DNA from: a virus
Taxonomy: Duplodnaviria > Caudoviricetes
Virus record (IMG/VR): IMGVR_UViG_3300042908_000332
Location: 1-60,636 of that record
DNA: 60,636 bases
Strand: one strand, 5' to 3'
Below are positions 1 through 26,654 of this stretch, in pieces. Positions within the stretch are counted from its first letter, which is position 1. Every line of letters starts with the position of its first letter. The position numbers were made by a program, and so were the translations under genes. The notes under the pieces are model-generated. The model did no database searches. It saw only the letters and a program-made list of their open reading frames with translations, and was not told where the DNA came from.

Positions 1-52
1 CCCCGACTAATGGATTTGGAATCCATTGTGCTACCAATTACACCAATGACGC
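1..52 (-). tRNA. trnW: tRNA-Trp(CCA), 3' part cut off by window edge
   Basis: Minus strand reads GCGTCAT-TG-GTGT AATTGGTA GCAC-A-ATGGA TTCCAAA TCCAT-TAGTC-GGGG: acceptor 5' strand, D arm, anticodon arm with CCA, start of T arm. Confidence 0.9.
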
Positions 53-599: not shown

Positions 600-1120
600 T
601 ATATTACTTTTTTAAAATAATCATTATAAATATCTCTAGCCTCTTCAGGAGTACTATACGTGCCAAGGTGAATCAATTTATTATTTACTCTAATCATTGA
701 TCTGAATTTACCTCTTCTTTCGTGGACTCCGGTAAATCCATTAGGCCTCATACCTTTAGAAATATTGATACGATTATGTATTACTCTTAAATTCAATAAA
801 TTATTATTTAACTTATCTCCATCAATGTGATCTATCACCATGTTGTTTCCATTTGGATTATGATTTAAAAACGACATAGCAATTAATTGATGGGTTCTAA
901 TGTTTTTGGGTTTGCCATCTTTTCTTAATACAACAAATTTATACCCATTAGATGAAATACTTTCTTTCATAATGATTTCTTTCACAATTCTATAGTAAGG
1001 CCATCCTTTGTAGTCAATTCTTCTAGATAAGCTTTTAACTCTTCCCAAACTACTTACCTGATACAATCCCTCATATCCAGGTACATCTTTCCATACTTCT
1101 TTTACTTCATAACTTTCCAT
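599..1120 (-). CDS. NUMOD4-HNH homing endonuclease with C-terminal AP2-like domain
   Basis: EVWKDVPGYEGLYQVSSLGRVKS (NUMOD4), DHIDGDKLNN (HNH), HLGTYSTPEEA (AP2-like). Confidence 0.9.
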   Translation of the reverse strand: MESYEVKEVWKDVPGYEGLYQVSSLGRVKSLSRRIDYKGWPYYRIVKEIIMKESISSNGYKFVVLRKDGKPKNIRTHQLIAMSFLNHNPNGNNMVIDHIDGDKLNNNLLNLRVIHNRINISKGMRPNGFTGVHERRGKFRSMIRVNNKLIHLGTYSTPEEARDIYNDYFKKVI

Positions 1121-3851: not shown

Positions 3852-4271
3852 TTACCCCCTTACATTAAACTTTGGCATAACAAATCCTTCTTTCTTTTTA
3901 TCTTCCTTAGATACGTTTGTCCACTTGTCAATCTGCTCCAGTCTAGAGAAATACTCTACGGTGCAGTACTTATGATTATTCTCTGAGTGGAACTCGTCAT
4001 CCTTAGCGTTCTCCATTGCAACTTTGATGTCATCTAAGCTGAAATGCTTAAGTATTTCCTTGTACTTGTTGACAACCTTTTTGGTCATCACACGTGAACG
4101 CTTTTGGAAAACTTCGTTAAAGATATTTAATATTTTCAGAACATCATCGCCTGATGCAACGGATGTCATTGAATCAATATCTTTCTTGGCAGCATTGAGT
4201 ATTGCCGTCTTTTCTTCTGAGAACGGCCCGAATATCCTATCGAGCTCATTCTCTAAATGTTTTAGTATCAT
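3852..4271 (-). CDS. putative replication initiator/helicase loader (phage replication protein C-terminal-like domain)
   Basis: Directly upstream of dnaB; FNEVF...FSLDDIKVAMENAKDDEFH...KYCTVEYFSR resembles C-termini of phage replication proteins. Confidence 0.55.
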   Translation of the reverse strand: MILKHLENELDRIFGPFSEEKTAILNAAKKDIDSMTSVASGDDVLKILNIFNEVFQKRSRVMTKKVVNKYKEILKHFSLDDIKVAMENAKDDEFHSENNHKYCTVEYFSRLEQIDKWTNVSKEDKKKEGFVMPKFNVRG

Positions 4272-13888: not shown

Positions 13889-14197
13889 TTAAATTGCTAA
13901 TCCTTTTACATCTATCAATTGTCCGTCCCATAGCTCACCATTGAGATACCATTGCCAATTCTTTTGGTTTATGTGTACTCCAGGAATTGCGTTGAGACGT
14001 TCTTTTGTGGTCTTGGTGAACCATCCTGTTGTCGAGATGGATAAAGTGCGCTCAGGGTCATTATATCGGTACGCAATGCGATTACCGTATAGCTTCATGA
14101 TGGTTACATTTGGCAATACTTCGATTGTCATGTTGTCTTTCTTGAATGGTCGAGCGTTCATGAATGCATCGACTGCTTGTGCTGTTATCTTTTTCAT
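13889..14197 (-). CDS. hypothetical early protein
   Basis: LYGNRIA...GWFTKTTKERLNAI...QKNWQWY; start preceded by ATCTACC. Confidence 0.8.
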   Translation of the reverse strand: MKKITAQAVDAFMNARPFKKDNMTIEVLPNVTIMKLYGNRIAYRYNDPERTLSISTTGWFTKTTKERLNAIPGVHINQKNWQWYLNGELWDGQLIDVKGLAI

Positions 14198-14209
14198 GGT
14201 AGATTGTAT

Positions 14210-14479
14210 TTAGTATTTAAGTTTGCCATCTTCATAGAACATTCTGATTCTTGCTTTGATGTCTTCAGCTGTGCCGACCCATCCTTTGATTGATACCATT
14301 GGTATCTTTCCATCAATCATCATTTGTTCTTCATTCTTAATCATCTCTTCTTTGTTTGCGATGACATGGTCGCAGAATGATTCAAGTCCTTGCATAATGA
14401 AAGATTGGCATAGCGCACCGTATGGGCTATAGTTCATCAAGTTTTTCATTAAGTCTTCGTTAGTTAATTGCTTTTTCAT
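14210..14479 (-). CDS. hypothetical early protein
   Basis: ORF with A-rich start region. Confidence 0.7.
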   Translation of the reverse strand: MKKQLTNEDLMKNLMNYSPYGALCQSFIMQGLESFCDHVIANKEEMIKNEEQMMIDGKIPMVSIKGWVGTAEDIKARIRMFYEDGKLKY

Positions 14480-14498
14480 TTTGTTTTGTGTTTAGTTA

Positions 14499-14939
14499 TT
14501 AAATATATCCTTCATCTGCCATTGATAGATAACCTGTATCCGATAGAATGATGTGGTCCAGGACTCGTATGTCTAGTATGTCTCCTCCGCTTCTTAGCTT
14601 GCGAGTTATCTCAATGTCCTGCTCACTTGGTTTTAGGTTACCACTCGGGTGGTTGTGCGCTAAGATTATGCTATGACCTACTGCATTTAGTGCAATAGTG
14701 AACACAACTTTTGCATCTACAATTACTCCTGCCGTGCCTCCGCTTGATATTTTATCTACTGAGACAACCTCATTAGCACGATTAAGTGTAATCATGGCGC
14801 ACTCTTCTGTCCATTGGATTGTATCTGCATCGAATATAGTTCGGAAGAATTTTGCAGCATCTGCACTTGTCTTCATTTGATAGGTGATGCCGTCACCTTT
14901 CTTGGTTTTTACTGTGATTTTTGTTTGTGGTAGTTTCAT
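14499..14939 (-). CDS. radC: RadC-like JAB domain protein
   Basis: EE...LNRAN...GG...ILAHNHPSGNLKPSEQD...LDHIIL. Confidence 0.92.
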   Translation of the reverse strand: MKLPQTKITVKTKKGDGITYQMKTSADAAKFFRTIFDADTIQWTEECAMITLNRANEVVSVDKISSGGTAGVIVDAKVVFTIALNAVGHSIILAHNHPSGNLKPSEQDIEITRKLRSGGDILDIRVLDHIILSDTGYLSMADEGYI

Positions 14940-15094
14940 TTGATTAGTTTTAATGTATACTTGTCTCTTATTCCCTGCCAAGACAATAGACTCTTGGCTA
15001 TCTTTACTGCTTCTGCTCTATCGTTTGCGGATATTATTGTGCTATCCACTTCACCCCCATCATGTGTGAGTACAGTTAATTTCCAGTGCTTCAT
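14936..15094 (-). CDS. small hypothetical protein (52 aa, not in ORF track)
   Basis: MKHWKLTVLTHDGGEVDSTIISANDRAEAVKIA...; ATGA overlaps on both sides. Confidence 0.6.
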   Translation of the reverse strand: MKHWKLTVLTHDGGEVDSTIISANDRAEAVKIAKSLLSWQGIRDKYTLKLIK

Positions 15095-15222
15095 TGTCTT
15101 GGTTTTTGTTGTGCTTTCTTAATTGACTTTGATACATAGTATCCCTTGGTGTGACATTGTTTTGCTGTGCCACATGATGCCGCAACTATTGCGATAATCA
15201 TAATTGTAATTAGTTTTCTCAC
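15091..15222 (-). CDS. small lipoprotein (43 aa, GTG start, not in ORF track)
   Basis: MRKLITIMIIAIVAASCGTAKQCHTKG...: basic N-terminus, hydrophobic core, lipobox AASC. Confidence 0.6.
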   Translation of the reverse strand: MRKLITIMIIAIVAASCGTAKQCHTKGYYVSKSIKKAQQKPRQ

Positions 15223-15261
15223 TTTGTTTTATTTTAAAAAGTTTGCGTTGACAGTGATGGG

Positions 15262-15294
15262 AAAAGAAATAGGCGCACCAATTACGATACGCCT
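15262..15294 (-). terminator. intrinsic terminator
   Basis: AGGCGTATC-GTAATT-GGTGCGCCT followed by ATTTCTTTT. Confidence 0.7.
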
Positions 15295-15321
15295 TTCTTC
15301 TCTATCTACCACAACAGAATG

Positions 15322-15399
15322 TTATTTCTTCGATAGTAATTTAAGTGTCAATAATATGTTGAGTACTACTGACAGGTATATAATTTCTCCTGCACTCAT
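15322..15399 (-). CDS. small membrane peptide (25 aa, not in ORF track)
   Basis: MSAGEIIYLSVVLNILLTLKLLSKK; ATGA overlap with upstream ORF. Confidence 0.5.
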   Translation of the reverse strand: MSAGEIIYLSVVLNILLTLKLLSKK

Positions 15400-15617
15400 G
15401 GTCTCTCAATTAAATAGTGAATAGTATAATCTTCTTGATCTTCGTATAGTACCTCCTGAATGTTGGTGTATTTACGCACCAATTCCTTCAGCTTGACGTA
15501 CCTATCTATGCTTATCCATTGTCCTTTGACCTCTCCCGGATTGCATAGGAACACATTTGTTTTGTTGCTTGGGCGCAGTATCTCCGCACTCCAAACCTTG
15601 TTAATTTGTACTCTCAT
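15396..15617 (-). CDS. hypothetical early protein
   Basis: ORF with A-rich start region. Confidence 0.65.
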   Translation of the reverse strand: MRVQINKVWSAEILRPSNKTNVFLCNPGEVKGQWISIDRYVKLKELVRKYTNIQEVLYEDQEDYTIHYLIERP

Positions 15618-15620
15618 TTG

Positions 15621-15851
15621 TTATCTGTTTTTGTGGTTTAAACGGTAATATTTCTTGAGTTCATCTAATTCATCGGCACTCTTATTTAAATTAATTTCAA
15701 GGTACTCGTAGAATTCATTTGTATCTCTCAAAGATTCATACAATTCTTTACTTTGTTTGTGTTGACCATTTATTTTACTCTCGTATATGTAGCAAAATAA
15801 TTCTTCCCATGTTTGGAATTCAAGGTCTTGAGGTTCTAAAAACTTTTTCAT
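15621..15851 (-). CDS. hypothetical early protein
   Basis: YIYESKINGQHKQ; start preceded by ATCTACCATA. Confidence 0.75.
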   Translation of the reverse strand: MKKFLEPQDLEFQTWEELFCYIYESKINGQHKQSKELYESLRDTNEFYEYLEINLNKSADELDELKKYYRLNHKNR

Positions 15852-15870
15852 TATGGTAGATTTTTGTGGT

Positions 15871-16125
15871 TTACTTTGTGCTTTTTATCCAAAGTTCTTT
15901 TGATAATAGACCTTTTTGTATTGATAATTCTGCGGCTTCCTTCAGTATGCCTTTGCCTGAGAAGTCAAGACCGCTTATGTATTCGCCCCATTTGCCAAAC
16001 CTTGCAATTACAGTTGGTCTCCTGCCTTGAGCGCAAAAGTACAGGTCGTAGTCAGTTCCATCCCTTGTTACTGAATCTAAATGAGTGCAGTTGTCGCAGT
16101 CGTGTTCGTGAAATACTTTTTTCAT
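15871..16125 (-). CDS. hypothetical early protein with HDCxxC motif
   Basis: MKKVFHEHDCDNCTHL...DLYFC...TVIARFG...EYISG; start preceded by ATCTACCA. Confidence 0.75.
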   Translation of the reverse strand: MKKVFHEHDCDNCTHLDSVTRDGTDYDLYFCAQGRRPTVIARFGKWGEYISGLDFSGKGILKEAAELSIQKGLLSKELWIKSTK

Positions 16126-16142
16126 TGGTAGATAAATTAATT

Positions 16143-16225
16143 GGTTAAGACTCATAAAAAAAAGGGGATGCACCAATATAGTACACCCCCTGGAGTTTCG
16201 TCCATTTAGGACTCATCAGTTAACC
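16143..16225 (-). ncRNA. type I hammerhead ribozyme
   Basis: GGTTAA-CTGATGA-GTCC TAAAT GGAC-GAAA-CTC...GAGTC-TTAACC: complete core, stems I/II/III, GUC cleavage triplet (cut between 16149 and 16148). Confidence 0.88.
16156..16191 (-). terminator. intrinsic terminator nested in hammerhead stem III loop
   Basis: GGGGGTGTAC-TATATT-GGTGCATCCCC followed by T8. Confidence 0.75.
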
Positions 16226-16654
16226 TTAGATTGCGGCAGTCTTTTTGTTTTGTGCCTCAACTTTTGTTTTCGTTACGGCTAATTTGTTGAACTTTGCAAG
16301 TACGTTGATGCCGTCCCATGTAGAATATAAAGCTTTTGGCTTCTTTGTAATTTCAGCTAGAAACTCGATGTAAGACGGCATTTTACTTTTGCCTAGCACT
16401 AGCTTGACATTATCGGCAATTTCTCCCTGTGCCTTGTTCAATCGGTTATAAACTGCGCTTGGGCTTTTGTCCTCGAGCATAATCAAGGTATTGACTAAGC
16501 TTTTGAGTTCGGCTAAGTTAAGCCCCTCAGCTTGTTGCTTAGTTTTTAGCGCATCTAAGCGCATCATTTTTTTGTCAAAAGTTGACAATTTTGTAGCCTC
16601 TACAATTTTAGTAGTTGTTACTTTTTTCGCTGTTTTGTTTTGTGTTGCTTTCAT
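16226..16654 (-). CDS. Lys-rich hypothetical protein, first gene of the leftward arm
   Basis: 142 aa ORF with strong A-rich start region. Confidence 0.75.
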   Translation of the reverse strand: MKATQNKTAKKVTTTKIVEATKLSTFDKKMMRLDALKTKQQAEGLNLAELKSLVNTLIMLEDKSPSAVYNRLNKAQGEIADNVKLVLGKSKMPSYIEFLAEITKKPKALYSTWDGINVLAKFNKLAVTKTKVEAQNKKTAAI

Positions 16655-16692
16655 TTGTTTTGTTTTTTATTGGTTATTAATTAAAGATTAGC

Positions 16693-16759
16693 GGTTCAGT
16701 AGGACTCGAACCTACAAAACAATTAGTTATTTCAAATTGTCTTAATGCCTTTTTGAACC
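16693..16759 (-). ncRNA. tRNA-like element (degenerate D arm, non-canonical anticodon loop)
   Basis: GGTTCA/TGAACC acceptor-like stem, GTAGG-TTCGAGT-CCTAC T arm, ACAATT/AATTGT stem with 10 nt loop. Confidence 0.55.
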
Positions 16760-17467
16760 TTTGCCCTGCTCCATTAATGCAGATATCTATTTATTTATCC
16801 TTTGCCCTTTTTTAATTCGGAAAAAGATTAGAGGATTTTGCTTGTTGCCCCTACAATTGCACATTGTTGCTACCTATTTGCTAATTAGGTTGTGCCTTTG
16901 TCGTTTGGTCTATATAATTGCAAATGCCTTGAAAGGATTAAGCAGCTGCCTTGTTACTGCCGTTCGGTTATGCTTTATGTTGCAATTGCAACTATTCTCA
17001 ATTGAGAGTAAGCCCGAAGCCCTTATTAACTTGCGTTATCATGTAGCCCGTATGTCAATTGTGTTGCGTTCTCGTTTGAACAAGGCTAATCTACAAACTA
17101 AATTTGAATTAACAATAAAAAAGTTTGAAAAAATTTATCGAGAACGTCTGAAACCCTTGAAAAATAAGGGATTTTTGAATTGAGTGAAATACTGGAAATC
17201 GGTAAAATTTAGGCAAAATTGAGACAAATTAACGTGAATTAAACGCAACAAATTGTAGGTATTTTTGGCACAAATTAGGTATAAAAATAGCTATGTAGTA
17301 TGTCTATATTGGACGTATATAAAGCCTAATTATAACAAAGGCGAAGCCGATGCAAAGAACGTGAAGCGAAGGTTGAATAAAAGATAGTTAACTAGCTGAG
17401 AATGAGGATGTTCAGGGCTTCGTTTTCGGTAGAGAATGGGGAGGGGTGCCGGTAAGGCGTATAAGTC

Positions 17468-17533
17468 CCTAAAAAACACAGATACTATTCTGAGTCAACC
17501 TAAAAAATAGAGATACTTTTCAGGACATAACCT
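17468..17533. repeat. imperfect direct repeat in the divergent intergenic region
   Basis: CCTAAAAAAcacAGATACTaTTCtG...AACCT versus CCTAAAAAAtagAGATACTtTTCaG...AACCT. Confidence 0.55.
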
Positions 17534-17856
17534 GATATTAAAGTAAATTAGTAAGGGTATAGCCTTATAGAAGTGGGAGGGGTAGTAGTACTATCGTGGT
17601 ACCCGATGTGGAGGCACATAAATGATTAGTATACAGGCTGATACTATCCCGGCAATAATCAATCAGGGGTACTGCGTACACCTAATTACTTATTTATGGG
17701 CATCAATGATATTCTGTTAGGACCATGTAGAGATAAACAGTATATAGAGTGTATTTGTAAGTTATTGATTAGTAATAAGTTAGTATGTGAAAAAGTATAC
17801 ACAAGTTGTTCTGACAGAAGTATATACAAAGTGCTTGTTTTCTTAAATATAATTTA

Positions 17857-17864
17857 TATATTTG
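17857..17864 (+). promoter_or_regulatory. Bacteroidota -7 promoter element TATATTTG
   Basis: Consensus match 4 nt before the ATG at 17869 (probably leaderless mRNA). Confidence 0.7.
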
Positions 17865-17868
17865 CCAT

Positions 17869-18183
17869 ATGATAAGTAAAAGTGGAGTAGACTTAAGTGT
17901 ATGTGCTTATTGTAAGTGCACGCTTGATGATTACAGTCGTACCGTAGATCATTTGATTCCGAAGAGTAGAGGGGGTAAGTTGAGTAATGCAAATAAAGTA
18001 CCTGCCTGTGGAGATTGTAATAAGATGAAGGGAGATATGAGTGTTACTGAATTCGGGAGGGCTCTAAATGGATTGATATTCTATGAGCATACCCGACATA
18101 AGCAGACGATATCGCATCTGAAGAAAATTAAACTTAATGTGGATTCACTTATTGTGGATCGTAATTTACAATCTAAAAAATGA
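17869..18183 (+). CDS. HNH endonuclease
   Basis: CAYC...TVDHLIPKSRGG...NKVPACGDCNKMKG. Confidence 0.92.
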   Translation: MISKSGVDLSVCAYCKCTLDDYSRTVDHLIPKSRGGKLSNANKVPACGDCNKMKGDMSVTEFGRALNGLIFYEHTRHKQTISHLKKIKLNVDSLIVDRNLQSKK

Positions 18184-18719
18184 ACAACATAGTATTCGAC
18201 TTAATCCTGCTGGAAGCCGACAGGGTAATCAATCAAAAAGTAAAGGGCCTAGATTTGTATTACAAGAATCAGAAGGGAGAGTTCGTTCCTATTGCTGAAG
18301 GGTACAATGCGCAGGCTGACGATGTCATTGCGAACTTATTGCGTAGAAAAAAGATGAGGTACATGATTACCTTCACTGAGTCGCTCACCATTATGAACCA
18401 AGTTAAGCCTTCGGCTAATCGTATGTTGCGCTTTATGACCCAGCAGATGGGGTACGGTAATACTTTGAAAAATTACAGTTTGCGTGATATTCAACAGCTA
18501 ACGGATATGAATATGAAGTTTGTGATGAGTAGCATCAAAGAACTTTGTGCCAAAGATATTATTAGATTTACAACCGAAAAGAATCGCCGAACCTATATGG
18601 TCAACCCTATATACTTTTACAAAGGAACAATTAAGAAGCTCTTCTACTGTGTAAAAGAATTTGATCGTATGCCTCAACGAAATGAGGAACTAGATGAGCA
18701 GTACTCAAATAACGACTAA
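18180..18719 (+). CDS. RepL-like winged-HTH protein
   Basis: HTH SLRDIQQLTDMNMKFVMSSIKEL followed by YMVNPIYFYKG. Confidence 0.7.
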   Translation: MNNIVFDLILLEADRVINQKVKGLDLYYKNQKGEFVPIAEGYNAQADDVIANLLRRKKMRYMITFTESLTIMNQVKPSANRMLRFMTQQMGYGNTLKNYSLRDIQQLTDMNMKFVMSSIKELCAKDIIRFTTEKNRRTYMVNPIYFYKGTIKKLFYCVKEFDRMPQRNEELDEQYSNND

Positions 18720-19604
18720 ATGGAATTAATCAGACACTCAAAAAACATTCACGAAATTAAAGTTGAAGGAACTAAATTTAAACTCGCTATGTTTAGCGAT
18801 ATCCACTGGGATAATCCTAAATGCGATTGGACACTACTCAAAAGAGATTTAGATTACTGCCTTAGAGAATCTATTCCGATGATGTTTAACGGAGATACCT
18901 TCTGCCTTATGCAGGGTAAATGGGATCCAAGAGGTACCAAGTCCGACATCCGCCCTGAGCATAACAACGTTCGCTACCTAGATTCAATCATAGAAACAGC
19001 CGTAGATTTCTTCACCCCATACGCACACCTAATTACTGTTGTCGGATATGGCAACCACGAAACCGCAATACTTAAACGCCATGAGACAGATGTACTTCAG
19101 CGCTTTGTTGACCTGCTTAATTACAAAAACCATACTAACGTTCAAACCGGAGGTTACGGAGGATGGATTGTAATCAATCAGACTACTAGACCTGGAACTA
19201 GAATCTCTACCAAAGTGCGATATTTCCATGGAAGTGGAGGAGGGGGAATAGTGACCCGTGGTGAAATCAATCTTACTCGTGCCCTAGAAATGTATGAGGA
19301 TTTTGAGGTATTTGCGATGGGACATATCCACGAGAATAAATGCACCAATATTGCTAGAGATACCATCGATCATTCAGTTGCAAATGGGTGGTCAAGTAAG
19401 CAAAAGCAAATTCACCTTATGATTACCGGCACCTACAAAGAAGAGTTTGGTGATGGATCTAAAGGATGGCACGTTGAACGTGGAGCACCAGTTAAACCAA
19501 TTGGAAGTAGAATACTTATCATAGACACCAGAAGGACAATAGATAAAAAAAATAATACTGATAGAACAGAAAAATCAATCGATAGTATTAAATTTCCAAT
19601 ATAA
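18720..19604 (+). CDS. calcineurin-like metallophosphoesterase
   Basis: SDIHWD, NGD, GNHE, HG, GHIH motifs. Confidence 0.9.
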   Translation: MELIRHSKNIHEIKVEGTKFKLAMFSDIHWDNPKCDWTLLKRDLDYCLRESIPMMFNGDTFCLMQGKWDPRGTKSDIRPEHNNVRYLDSIIETAVDFFTPYAHLITVVGYGNHETAILKRHETDVLQRFVDLLNYKNHTNVQTGGYGGWIVINQTTRPGTRISTKVRYFHGSGGGGIVTRGEINLTRALEMYEDFEVFAMGHIHENKCTNIARDTIDHSVANGWSSKQKQIHLMITGTYKEEFGDGSKGWHVERGAPVKPIGSRILIIDTRRTIDKKNNTDRTEKSIDSIKFPI

Positions 19605-26619: not shown

Positions 26620-26654
26620 TAGGGTAGGCATTAAATTGTCTACCCTATTTTTTT
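26620..26654 (+). terminator. intrinsic terminator next to promoter element TACCTTTG (26612-26619)
   Basis: TAGGGTAGGCA-TTAAAT-TGTCTACCCTA followed by T run. Confidence 0.75.

Follow-up and report, generated by a model that had tools for sequence, protein, structure and literature searches.

The viral record under study comprises 60,636 bases and is an estimated 88% complete; this whole stretch is called the window here. Its genes are laid out in two divergent blocks, and an intergenic element follows the first sizeable open reading frame (ORF) of the leftward operon:

~16654 down to 183, minus strand: replication/recombination block, with a DnaB-like helicase, an Erf/Rad52-like protein and RadC among its members
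from ~17869, plus strand: packaging/structural block, with a terminase and a P22-like portal among its members
16226..16654, minus strand: P0001, 142 amino acids, Lys-rich, the ORF just mentioned
16228-16226, minus strand: TAA stop of P0001, adjoining stem I of the hammerhead with a gap of 0
16143..16225, minus strand: complete type I hammerhead motif, 83 nt including the stem III insert, recognized from the sequence and with the same exact ends by model R1 (see below)
16126..16148, minus strand: leader of P0002, 23 nt, its last letters being AUCUACCA just before the ATG
15871..16125, minus strand: P0002, 84 amino acids, the next ORF downstream of the hammerhead

Neither Pfam nor NCBIfam gave a match for P0001, which had only one weak match in PHROG, of unknown function; P0002 had no family match in PHROG, Pfam or NCBIfam searches. 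Kinship between P0001 and the first early protein of L004 was not detectable (E 0.4). L004 is a related phage with a copy of P0002 that is 98% identical, and its hammerhead precedes a small membrane-protein gene. In the phage GenBank collection, nothing matched positions 15000-18000 of the window. Upstream of P0001 sits a tRNA-like element (16760-16691) scoring 17.1 bits against the tRNA cut-off of 29; in the related locus L003, a compensatory change is present in each of its acceptor-like, anticodon-like and T stems.

On the minus strand, the intergenic element runs in the order GGUUAA, CUGAUGA, GUCC-UAAAU-GGAC, GAAA, CUC, a 39-nt insert, GAG, UC and UUAACC. These parts can be assigned as follows (A1 being the family alignment described below):

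16220..16225, minus strand: stem I 5' strand GGUUAA, directly 3' of the P0001 TAA stop
16213..16219, minus strand: catalytic core strand CUGAUGA (C3-A9), its columns invariant in A1 except N7
16200..16212, minus strand: stem II GUCC/GGAC with the 5-nt loop UAAAU, loop positions 1, 3 and 5 being conserved family-wide
16196..16199, minus strand: core GAA plus A15.1 (GAAA), invariant in A1
16193..16195, minus strand: stem III 5' strand CUC, which pairs with GAG at 16151-16153 and is the same in L002 and L003
16149..16153, minus strand: stem III 3' strand GAG, U16.1 (16150) and C17 (16149), from the sequence
16143..16148, minus strand: stem I 3' strand UUAACC, the predicted 5'-OH end of the downstream RNA, from the sequence and R1

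The core consensus and position numbering of hammerheads are well established for the class. The core of this element was canonical throughout, comprising CUGANGA, GAA, the A15.1-U16.1 pair, H17 and the G10.1-C11.1 pair. The order of the elements and the R1 alignment both gave the type I topology, with an open stem I and loop-closed stems II and III. Hence, the complete type I hammerhead that the original prediction had placed right after the stop of the first early gene was recovered with every listed part in its position. From the hammerhead consensus, we take the cut to fall between 16149 and 16148, after C17; cleavage in this class depends on Mg and leaves 2',3'-cyclic phosphate and 5'-OH termini. 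The ATG of P0002 (16125) lies 23 nt after this predicted cut, and the leader ending in AUCUACCA-AUG is present in the sequence as had been claimed. The loose pattern CTGATGA-N8-30-GAAA matched 7 times in the window, versus 1.9 matches expected, and a stem II was found only in the match at 16143-16225. Fast hammerhead cleavage at low Mg depends on a tertiary contact between elements of stems I and II; pairing of loop II with the stem I flanks, as in a pseudoknot, did not exceed shuffled pairings (upstream 4-mers 24 vs 19.8, downstream 17 vs 23.6).

Viral contigs were scanned for the family pattern GGTTAACTGANGAG-N10-16-CGAAAC, which returned at least 119 stretches. Among the 155 pattern occurrences listed, 146 had T[ACT]TTAACC downstream, which completes the type I hammerhead; this count covers duplicate loci and the window as well. 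When a G-U pair was allowed in stem I, there were at least 152 closed copies with at least 132 unique sequences, the window's own being one of them. One locus that matched the first search pattern, L008, was rejected as an unrelated type III hammerhead.

We aligned 26 other phage copies with a 14-nt stem III without gaps, leaving out the window (alignment A1). In A1, 99.3% of the cells were paired, and 7 of the 16 pairs had changed on both sides, all of them in stems II and III; the covariation score was 0.468, compared with 0.102 in shuffles. The covariance model built from A1 (R1) matched exactly 16143-16225 from end to end, with 55.1 bits and an E value of 2.5e-12, and found no second copy in the window (next match 12.4 bits, E 0.7). 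The default run aligned the element in full; an alternative run with the filters off produced a truncated 33.6-bit alignment that forced a short false stem III, and was discarded. Over 100 other loci, R1 detected 150 copies. Stem I was GGUUAA/UUAACC in 127 of these 150 matches and showed compensatory variants in others, including the pairing-preserving forms GAUUAA/UUAAUC (seven matches) and GGUCUA/UAGAUC (two matches). An alignment of 137 distinct sequences fitted to the structure of R1 (A2) had 98.7% of its cells paired, with 12 of 16 pairs changed on both sides, four of them in stem I. Its covariation score was 0.561; shuffles gave 0.115, and slid partners no more than 0.073.

At gathering scores, Rfam 15 called no hammerhead in the window. 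The window copy reached 19.7 bits for RF00163 (cut-off 34), 22.5 bits for RF00008 (cut-off 48.5) and 14.3 bits for RF03152 (cut-off 56.3). Typical family members from six loci likewise had 0 Rfam matches at gathering scores, their best values being 26-29 bits for RF03152 (cut-off 56.3) and 19.9 bits for RF00163 (cut-off 34). Because typical members also fall below the cut-offs, the miss reflects the Rfam models rather than the sequence. The search with Rfam hammerhead models that had been proposed as a check thus gave scores below gathering, whereas the model of the family itself recognized the element at high significance. These comparisons confirm, as far as sequence can do so, that the hammerhead at 16143..16225 is a genuine ribozyme motif rather than a chance match. 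By its full-length match to R1, the A on either flank of stem I, the upstream stop and the spacing to the ATG, the stretch 16143..16225 is a member of the GGUUAA/UUAACC type I phage family.

This family has regular habits. The distance from the cut to the ATG had a median of 22 nt and was 10-35 nt in 108 of 113 listed copies; an ATG was counted if it opened at least 40 codons, and 19 of the 132 listed unique copies had none within 120 nt. In 39 of the 132 listed unique copies, the upstream ORF terminates at the UAA inside GGUUAA. In a further 12 of the listed copies the upstream stop overlapped the first G of stem I, and in 7, including the window, it adjoined the element. The stop was therefore within, overlapping or adjoining stem I in 58 of 132 listed unique copies. 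An A flanked stem I in 111 of 112 listed copies on one side and in 110 of 112 on the other. The number of copies per locus was five in L057, two in L004, and one each in L002, L003 and L005. The window conforms to these habits, with a stop adjoining stem I and 23 nt from cut to ATG compared with the median of 22 nt. In L004, hammerheads flank the analogous first early gene on either side, and in the window the tRNA-like element occupies the upstream position, which backs a role of the hammerheads in RNA processing.

The stem III insert of the window copy contains two further features:

16163..16191, minus strand: GC-rich hairpin of 13 pairs (6 GC) with a 3-nt loop, from the terminator scan and folding
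16156..16163, minus strand: U8 tract after the hairpin, of which the first U can close the hairpin, from the sequence

The 39-nt insert folds at -20.0 kcal/mol with a z score of -4.9, and 0 of 200 shuffles were as stable. In a consensus terminator scan of positions 14000-19000, the stem III hairpin was the first of 8 terminator-like sites, versus 2.7 sites expected, and with a cruder script it ranked first of 35 terminator-like candidates in the whole 60.6-kb window. These results bear out the claim that the stem III loop consists of a GC-rich hairpin plus U8. Similar hairpin-plus-U sites occur in other intergenic gaps, for instance at 26648 and 19679 on the plus strand and at 15269 and 9458 on the minus strand, so the phage apparently uses hairpin-plus-U terminators. 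The insert carries all sequence features of an intrinsic terminator, namely a GC-rich hairpin and an adjoining U tract on the transcribed strand, and termination is predicted at ~16157-16154 on the minus strand. An RNA ending in the U tract would be unable to cut, because the 3' halves of stems III and I would be missing from it. The earlier claim that U-tract-terminated RNA lacks the cleavage strand and that only read-through RNA can cut itself would hold by this geometry. Cutting of other sites in trans by the terminated RNA was considered and rejected: GAGTHTTAACC, with at most one mismatch, had 3 matches versus 3.15 expected, and the sole exact match was the element itself.

Folding also yielded a competing structure. 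The hammerhead-compatible fold had -28.5 kcal/mol, versus -31.9 kcal/mol for a fold in which CUGAUGA pairs with a UUAUGAG segment, making the latter 3.4 kcal/mol more stable. These are nearest-neighbour energies that ignore tertiary contacts, and the difference is a caveat rather than a refutation. Moreover, stem III of the window copy has only 4 pairs, which close a large asymmetric internal loop.

Stem III varies widely within the family. It was at most 22 nt long in 109 of the 132 listed unique copies, a short GC hairpin being the family norm, and it is 45 nt long in the clade of the window. A run of at least five T in stem III occurred in 6 listed unique copies; together with L002 and L003, which have 7 T of 8, this gives 8 of 132, while the other 124 of 132 listed unique copies had no U-rich run in stem III. 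The 8 copies with a U run form three clades that are unrelated in sequence:

clade 1: the window, L002 and L003
clade 2: L036/L083, L085 and L105, located between a gene of ~200 codons and a 49-codon gene; the hairpin sequences differ and U5 is kept
clade 3: L021/L059 and L084, located at a gene end with no downstream ORF and with non-coding tandem repeats thereafter, a position at which one would expect a terminator

In clades 2 and 3, the U run gives U/U mismatches instead of a longer helix, which argues that U-richness itself has been selected. Viral contigs, with the window's own record excluded, contained 0 further copies combining an 11-nt stem II region with T6 in stem III, a pattern that clades with a 10-nt stem II cannot match. 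A metagenome scan for more clade 1 alleles gave three stretches, all of them L002 or L003 alleles. Counting against such selection, relatives also have long stem III regions without a U tract. The homologous hairpin of L004 forms a fully paired 36-nt stem III that has UUU only and no U tract, and in L005 stem III spans 56 nt and is free of U runs.

Comparison with the two close alleles indicates how the element has been maintained. In L002, the element differs from the window at 1 of 83 nt, in the U tract, and the DNA of the P0001 gene is 91.8% identical. In L003, there are 7 differences per 83 nt, and the P0001 gene is 84.4% identical. The L003 differences affect N7, both sides of the fourth pair of stem II, two variable positions of loop II, the hairpin tip and the U tract; stem II there reads GUCU/AGAC, a compensatory double change relative to GUCC/GGAC in the window. 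Within the hairpin, there were 0 differences in L002 and 1 in L003. The U tract stays U-rich, as U8 in the window, U3CU4 in L002 and U4CU3 in L003, yet is the sole part altered in both close alleles. The element is thus better conserved than the adjoining gene, and constraint acts on the ribozyme as well as on the hairpin.

The leader downstream of the cut shares its last letters with other genes. Exact copies of AUCUACCA occur six times on the minus strand, and four of these adjoin early-gene ATGs, at 16133, 15861, 14204 and 12429. Its complement, UGGUAGAU, has three minus-strand copies, and those at 15311 and 9502 are followed within ~10-12 nt by a terminator-like hairpin. The UGGUAGAU-hairpin unit at 15311 is conserved in L002-L004. 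Such a unit is plausibly an anti-leader element targeting the AUCUACCA leaders.

Taken together, we lean slightly towards a reading in which leaky termination and self-cleavage of the read-through RNA would both take place at this one element. The long stem III hairpin of an active intercistronic hammerhead would have gained a U tract in the lineage of the window, and would thereby double as an intrinsic terminator of the leaky kind. If polymerase halts within the U tract, the first-gene message would end in the hairpin, carry the catalytic half only and be unable to cut itself. Read-through would add GAG-UC-UUAACC, upon which the three-way junction could close and the RNA would cut itself after C17. 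The cleaved upstream product would end ~7-8 nt past the terminated one, behind the same hairpin, and the downstream product would start with a 5'-OH and an A/U-rich leader of 23 nt before the ATG of P0002. The expected net effect is more message of the first gene than of the downstream genes, and separate stability and translation of each. In favour of leaky termination with self-cleavage are the canonical core, the match to R1, the covariation, the conservation, the placement, the terminator features, the recurrence of U runs in two further clades and the precedent of the prophage and halovirus hammerheads described below. Against it are the altered U tract in both alleles, the lack of a U tract in L004, the competing fold and the shortness of stem III. 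With no TAnnTTTG-type promoter found between the element and the many downstream early genes, a strong terminator at this site would be costly to them unless it were leaky or overridden.

Alternatively, the hammerhead may be active and the hairpin with its U run may simply decorate stem III, in which case termination would be negligible and the polycistronic RNA would just be cut between genes 1 and 2. We regard this as rather unlikely, though a serious alternative. Relatives do have a long stem III without a U tract (L004 and L005), the tract is interrupted in L002 and L003, most listed family members lack a U-rich run in stem III, and the downstream early genes need read-through. However, the eight U residues (seven of eight in the relatives) follow the hairpin directly and are unpaired, so that they weaken stem III instead of extending it. 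Moreover, the hairpin is the top terminator-like site of the window, and the U runs of the two other clades produce U/U mismatches rather than pairs.

Another alternative extends the control to three layers, with termination, cleavage and an antisense RNA on the AUCUACCA-AUG leader jointly governing the second early gene. It would account for the recurrence of AUCUACCA at the ATGs of four minus-strand early genes and for the same-strand UGGUAGAU copies followed by terminator-like hairpins, the one at 15311 being kept in the relatives. We nevertheless consider it improbable: the match to the P0002 leader extends over only 8-9 nt, the motif is common to several genes without a ribozyme, and like motifs in the leaders of unrelated family members may represent a translation signal. 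Furthermore, nothing links the pairing to cleavage or termination. The original prediction had stacked termination, cleavage and antisense control at one site; the three are indeed co-located, but a mechanistic tie of the antisense component to the ribozyme was not found.

It is similarly improbable, and if anything more so, that the terminator works and the hammerhead is a decaying relic that cuts poorly since insertion of the U tract broke its stem III. The 4 remaining pairs around a large internal loop and the more stable competing fold would suit a relic, but the core nucleotides are all intact, the element is conserved better than the adjacent coding sequence, and L003 combines a compensatory stem II change with unaltered conserved positions in loop II. 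A chance match to the consensus with no ribozyme at all can be dismissed as vanishingly unlikely: Rfam 15 is silent at gathering scores, but equally so on typical family members, and R1 found the exact ends with a very low E value in a family of more than 130 homologous copies with covariation.

Two known systems share parts of the arrangement that we favour, leaky termination with cleavage of the read-through RNA. In the 3' UTR of mammalian Clec2 genes, a discontinuous hammerhead has its enzyme and substrate strands split by a long insertion, so that its assembly requires transcription of the distal strand; the strands are hundreds of nucleotides apart, and the arrangement is linked to alternative polyadenylation in eukaryotes. 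The strands of the window element are also separated, but by 39 nt holding a bacterial-type terminator-like hairpin. In phage lambda, the terminator tL1 follows N, the first early gene, and polymerase has to pass it before the remaining early operon can be expressed. The window likewise has a terminator-like site after its first early gene. P0001, however, belongs to no known family and an antiterminator is not in evidence, and lambda is not known to have a ribozyme.

Among the Rfam families, RF03152 (RAGATH-1 hammerhead) and RF00163 (Hammerhead_1) have the type I topology in common with the window element. RF03152 aligns end to end with the window copy, with a similar stem I and core, at scores far below its cut-off; it also models an upstream hairpin, and none was seen in the window element.

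Hammerheads in phages have been described before. According to the main text of Perreault et al. (2011; PMC3088659), several hammerheads flank genes in prophages, such clustered hammerheads cleave in vitro and in vivo, cleavage was shown for three arrangements, and the proposed role is the processing of long phage transcripts into gene-length mRNAs. The present element resembles the prophage and phage hammerheads reported there in its canonical core, its intergenic position between phage genes and the frequent presence of several copies per locus, here up to five (L057), with two flanking the first early gene in L004. Unlike those hammerheads as presented in PMC3088659, members of the present family hardly vary in their stem I sequence and keep a set spacing of ~22 nt to the ATG, and stem III of the window copy contains an insert resembling an intrinsic terminator; the word 'terminator' occurs 0 times in that main text. 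The same source describes HHphage of haloviruses HF1/HF2, a hammerhead located 13 nt before a start codon, for which a 5' end was mapped within 3 nt of the cleavage site. Like the window element, HHphage is part of an early polycistronic transcript and precedes a start codon (PMC3088659). It differs, in the account given there, in being a variant hammerhead of an archaeal virus and in having no nested terminator (PMC3088659).

Type I hammerheads in the 5' UTRs of RNA viruses were recently described as promoting translation (PMC13725137; 2026). As far as that description goes, they share with the window element the type I topology, a longer helix III, a position just upstream of an ORF, and a cleavage that sets the 5' end of the translated RNA. 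By the same description, they belong to eukaryotic RNA viruses and involve no terminator (PMC13725137). Among the publications that our literature search covered, natural hammerheads containing a terminator were not encountered; the matches were synthetic-biology papers or unrelated ones.

Reviews still treat the function of hammerheads in phages and bacteria as an open question (PMC6765202; PMC6155905). The present family is an unusually regular and testable case, with well over 100 copies, a stop codon often in stem I and a predicted cut ~22 nt before the ATG, and Rfam 15 misses the whole family at gathering scores. Judged by sequence, its members are a large and common kind of phage hammerhead, of which the terminator-like stem III is a rare but recurrent variant. 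The window element is unusual only in this terminator-like arm and appears otherwise to belong to a very common phage hammerhead type. With a nested terminator, a single 83-nt element would set the ratio of first-gene to downstream message as well as both RNA ends, and, if true, the composite element could serve as a compact part for the design of synthetic operons. More tentatively, and with clearly less confidence than we place in the leaky terminator itself, a 'terminator inside a ribozyme' might make stop and read-through converge on the same hairpin-protected 3' end, with read-through alone giving the remaining operon a 5'-OH mRNA with a short leader. Such a device may have arisen at least three times within a more general, phage-wide RNA punctuation, in which hammerheads stand ~22 nt ahead of start codons and may be exchanged for tRNA-like elements; the leaders produced in this phage may also be targets of anti-leader RNA.

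The Bacteroidota-type promoter motif TAnnTTTG had 0 matches on the minus strand between 18000 and 16042, where it missed the operon's own promoter as well, and 0 in the intergenic regions from the hammerhead down to ~9555. Matches to a sigma-70-like motif were close to background (22 vs 17.3 expected). DNA of the window is present in freshwater and lake metagenomes (22 sequencing runs listed). One of the 22 listed runs is an RNA run, which contains 0.06 of the sampled words; its contigs at 16204-16395 and 16518-16776 represent a relative with ~93% similarity and show neither ends, strand nor level, so that they do not bear on cleavage or termination. Four of the 22 runs, this one included, were compared with the window at the level of contigs.

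A scan of prokaryote genomes, with one genome per species, returned 21 stretches of the family, mostly in Bacteroidota or related metagenome-assembled genomes. These matches suggest that the host range of the family lies in the Bacteroidota, hosts that presumably initiate translation without Shine-Dalgarno pairing. The isolates among the matches were Gelidibacter pelagius DF109 and Paraflavitalea speifideaquila BL16E.

Contigs from lake and freshwater metagenomes covered two short stretches at and near the ribozyme with a summed depth several-fold above that of the surroundings:

16631-16669, start region of P0001 (the first early gene)
16172-16259, 5' half of the hammerhead

On either side of both stretches, many of these contigs diverged from the window. 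The combination of high summed depth and divergence on both sides suggests that the two stretches are short elements common to many other phages. The gene immediately downstream of the ribozyme is a swap point, because one metagenome contig of sequencing run X10 had 182 different letters in the place of positions 15641-16135 (P0002 and P0003), and the closest relatives, L002 and L003, carried a small membrane-protein gene 3' of the hammerhead where the window has P0002.

Among the matches listed, the family of phage type I hammerheads with a GGUUAA/UUAACC stem I shared several features. In 39 of the 132 unique copies, which come from loci L001-L125, the UAA within stem I (GGUUAA) doubled as the codon that ends the upstream ORF. 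Stem I was flanked by an A on each side in ~99% of the copies, and positions 1, 3 and 5 of loop II were a conserved U, A and U, respectively. Gene-end hammerheads with a terminator-like stem III were also found in the viral contigs L021 (at about 4136-4240) and L084 (upstream of position 98, minus strand); both were followed by tandem non-coding repeats of ~30 nt each, with no ORF there. A type III hammerhead with a stem I hairpin and a CUGAAGA core, unrelated to the family, lies at 638-790 (-) of L008, a viral contig of 305,890 bases; it was an accidental match to the first search pattern.

The related phage L004 has a hammerhead of the same family on either side of its first early gene (1739-1807 and 2216-2289). 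This gene encodes a Lys/Thr-rich protein of 129 aa with no detectable homology to P0001. One of these hammerheads fills a slot that is occupied in the window by a different structured element:

16691-16760, minus strand, tRNA-like element, ~35 nt upstream of the start codon (ATG) of P0001

The element combines a canonical T arm with an acceptor-like stem and an anticodon-like arm whose loop is oversized, and L003 has compensatory changes in all three stems. Its score of 17.1 bits is below the tRNA model's cut-off of 29, and no tRNA was called at this position by ARAGORN. Since its slot is taken by a hammerhead in L004, the element may be a processing signal for RNase P or RNase Z.

At the left contig end, positions 1-52 (-) hold a partial tRNA that is broken off by the window edge. 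It was not called by ARAGORN; it covers model positions 1-51 of 71 with 32.9 bits, and CCA is read in its anticodon loop.

Four early genes carry AUCUACCA immediately 5' of their ATG (16133, 15861, 14204 and 12429; all on the minus strand). The complementary sequence, UGGUAGAU, is present at two sites on this strand, and at both a terminator-like hairpin comes after it:

15311-15262, minus strand, first unit of UGGUAGAU plus terminator-like hairpin
9502-9450, minus strand, second unit of UGGUAGAU plus terminator-like hairpin

These two units are candidate anti-leader RNA elements. The copy of UGGUAGAU at 9502 matches two of the leaders over 11 nt, AUG included, and the unit at 15311 is kept in L002, L003 and L004.
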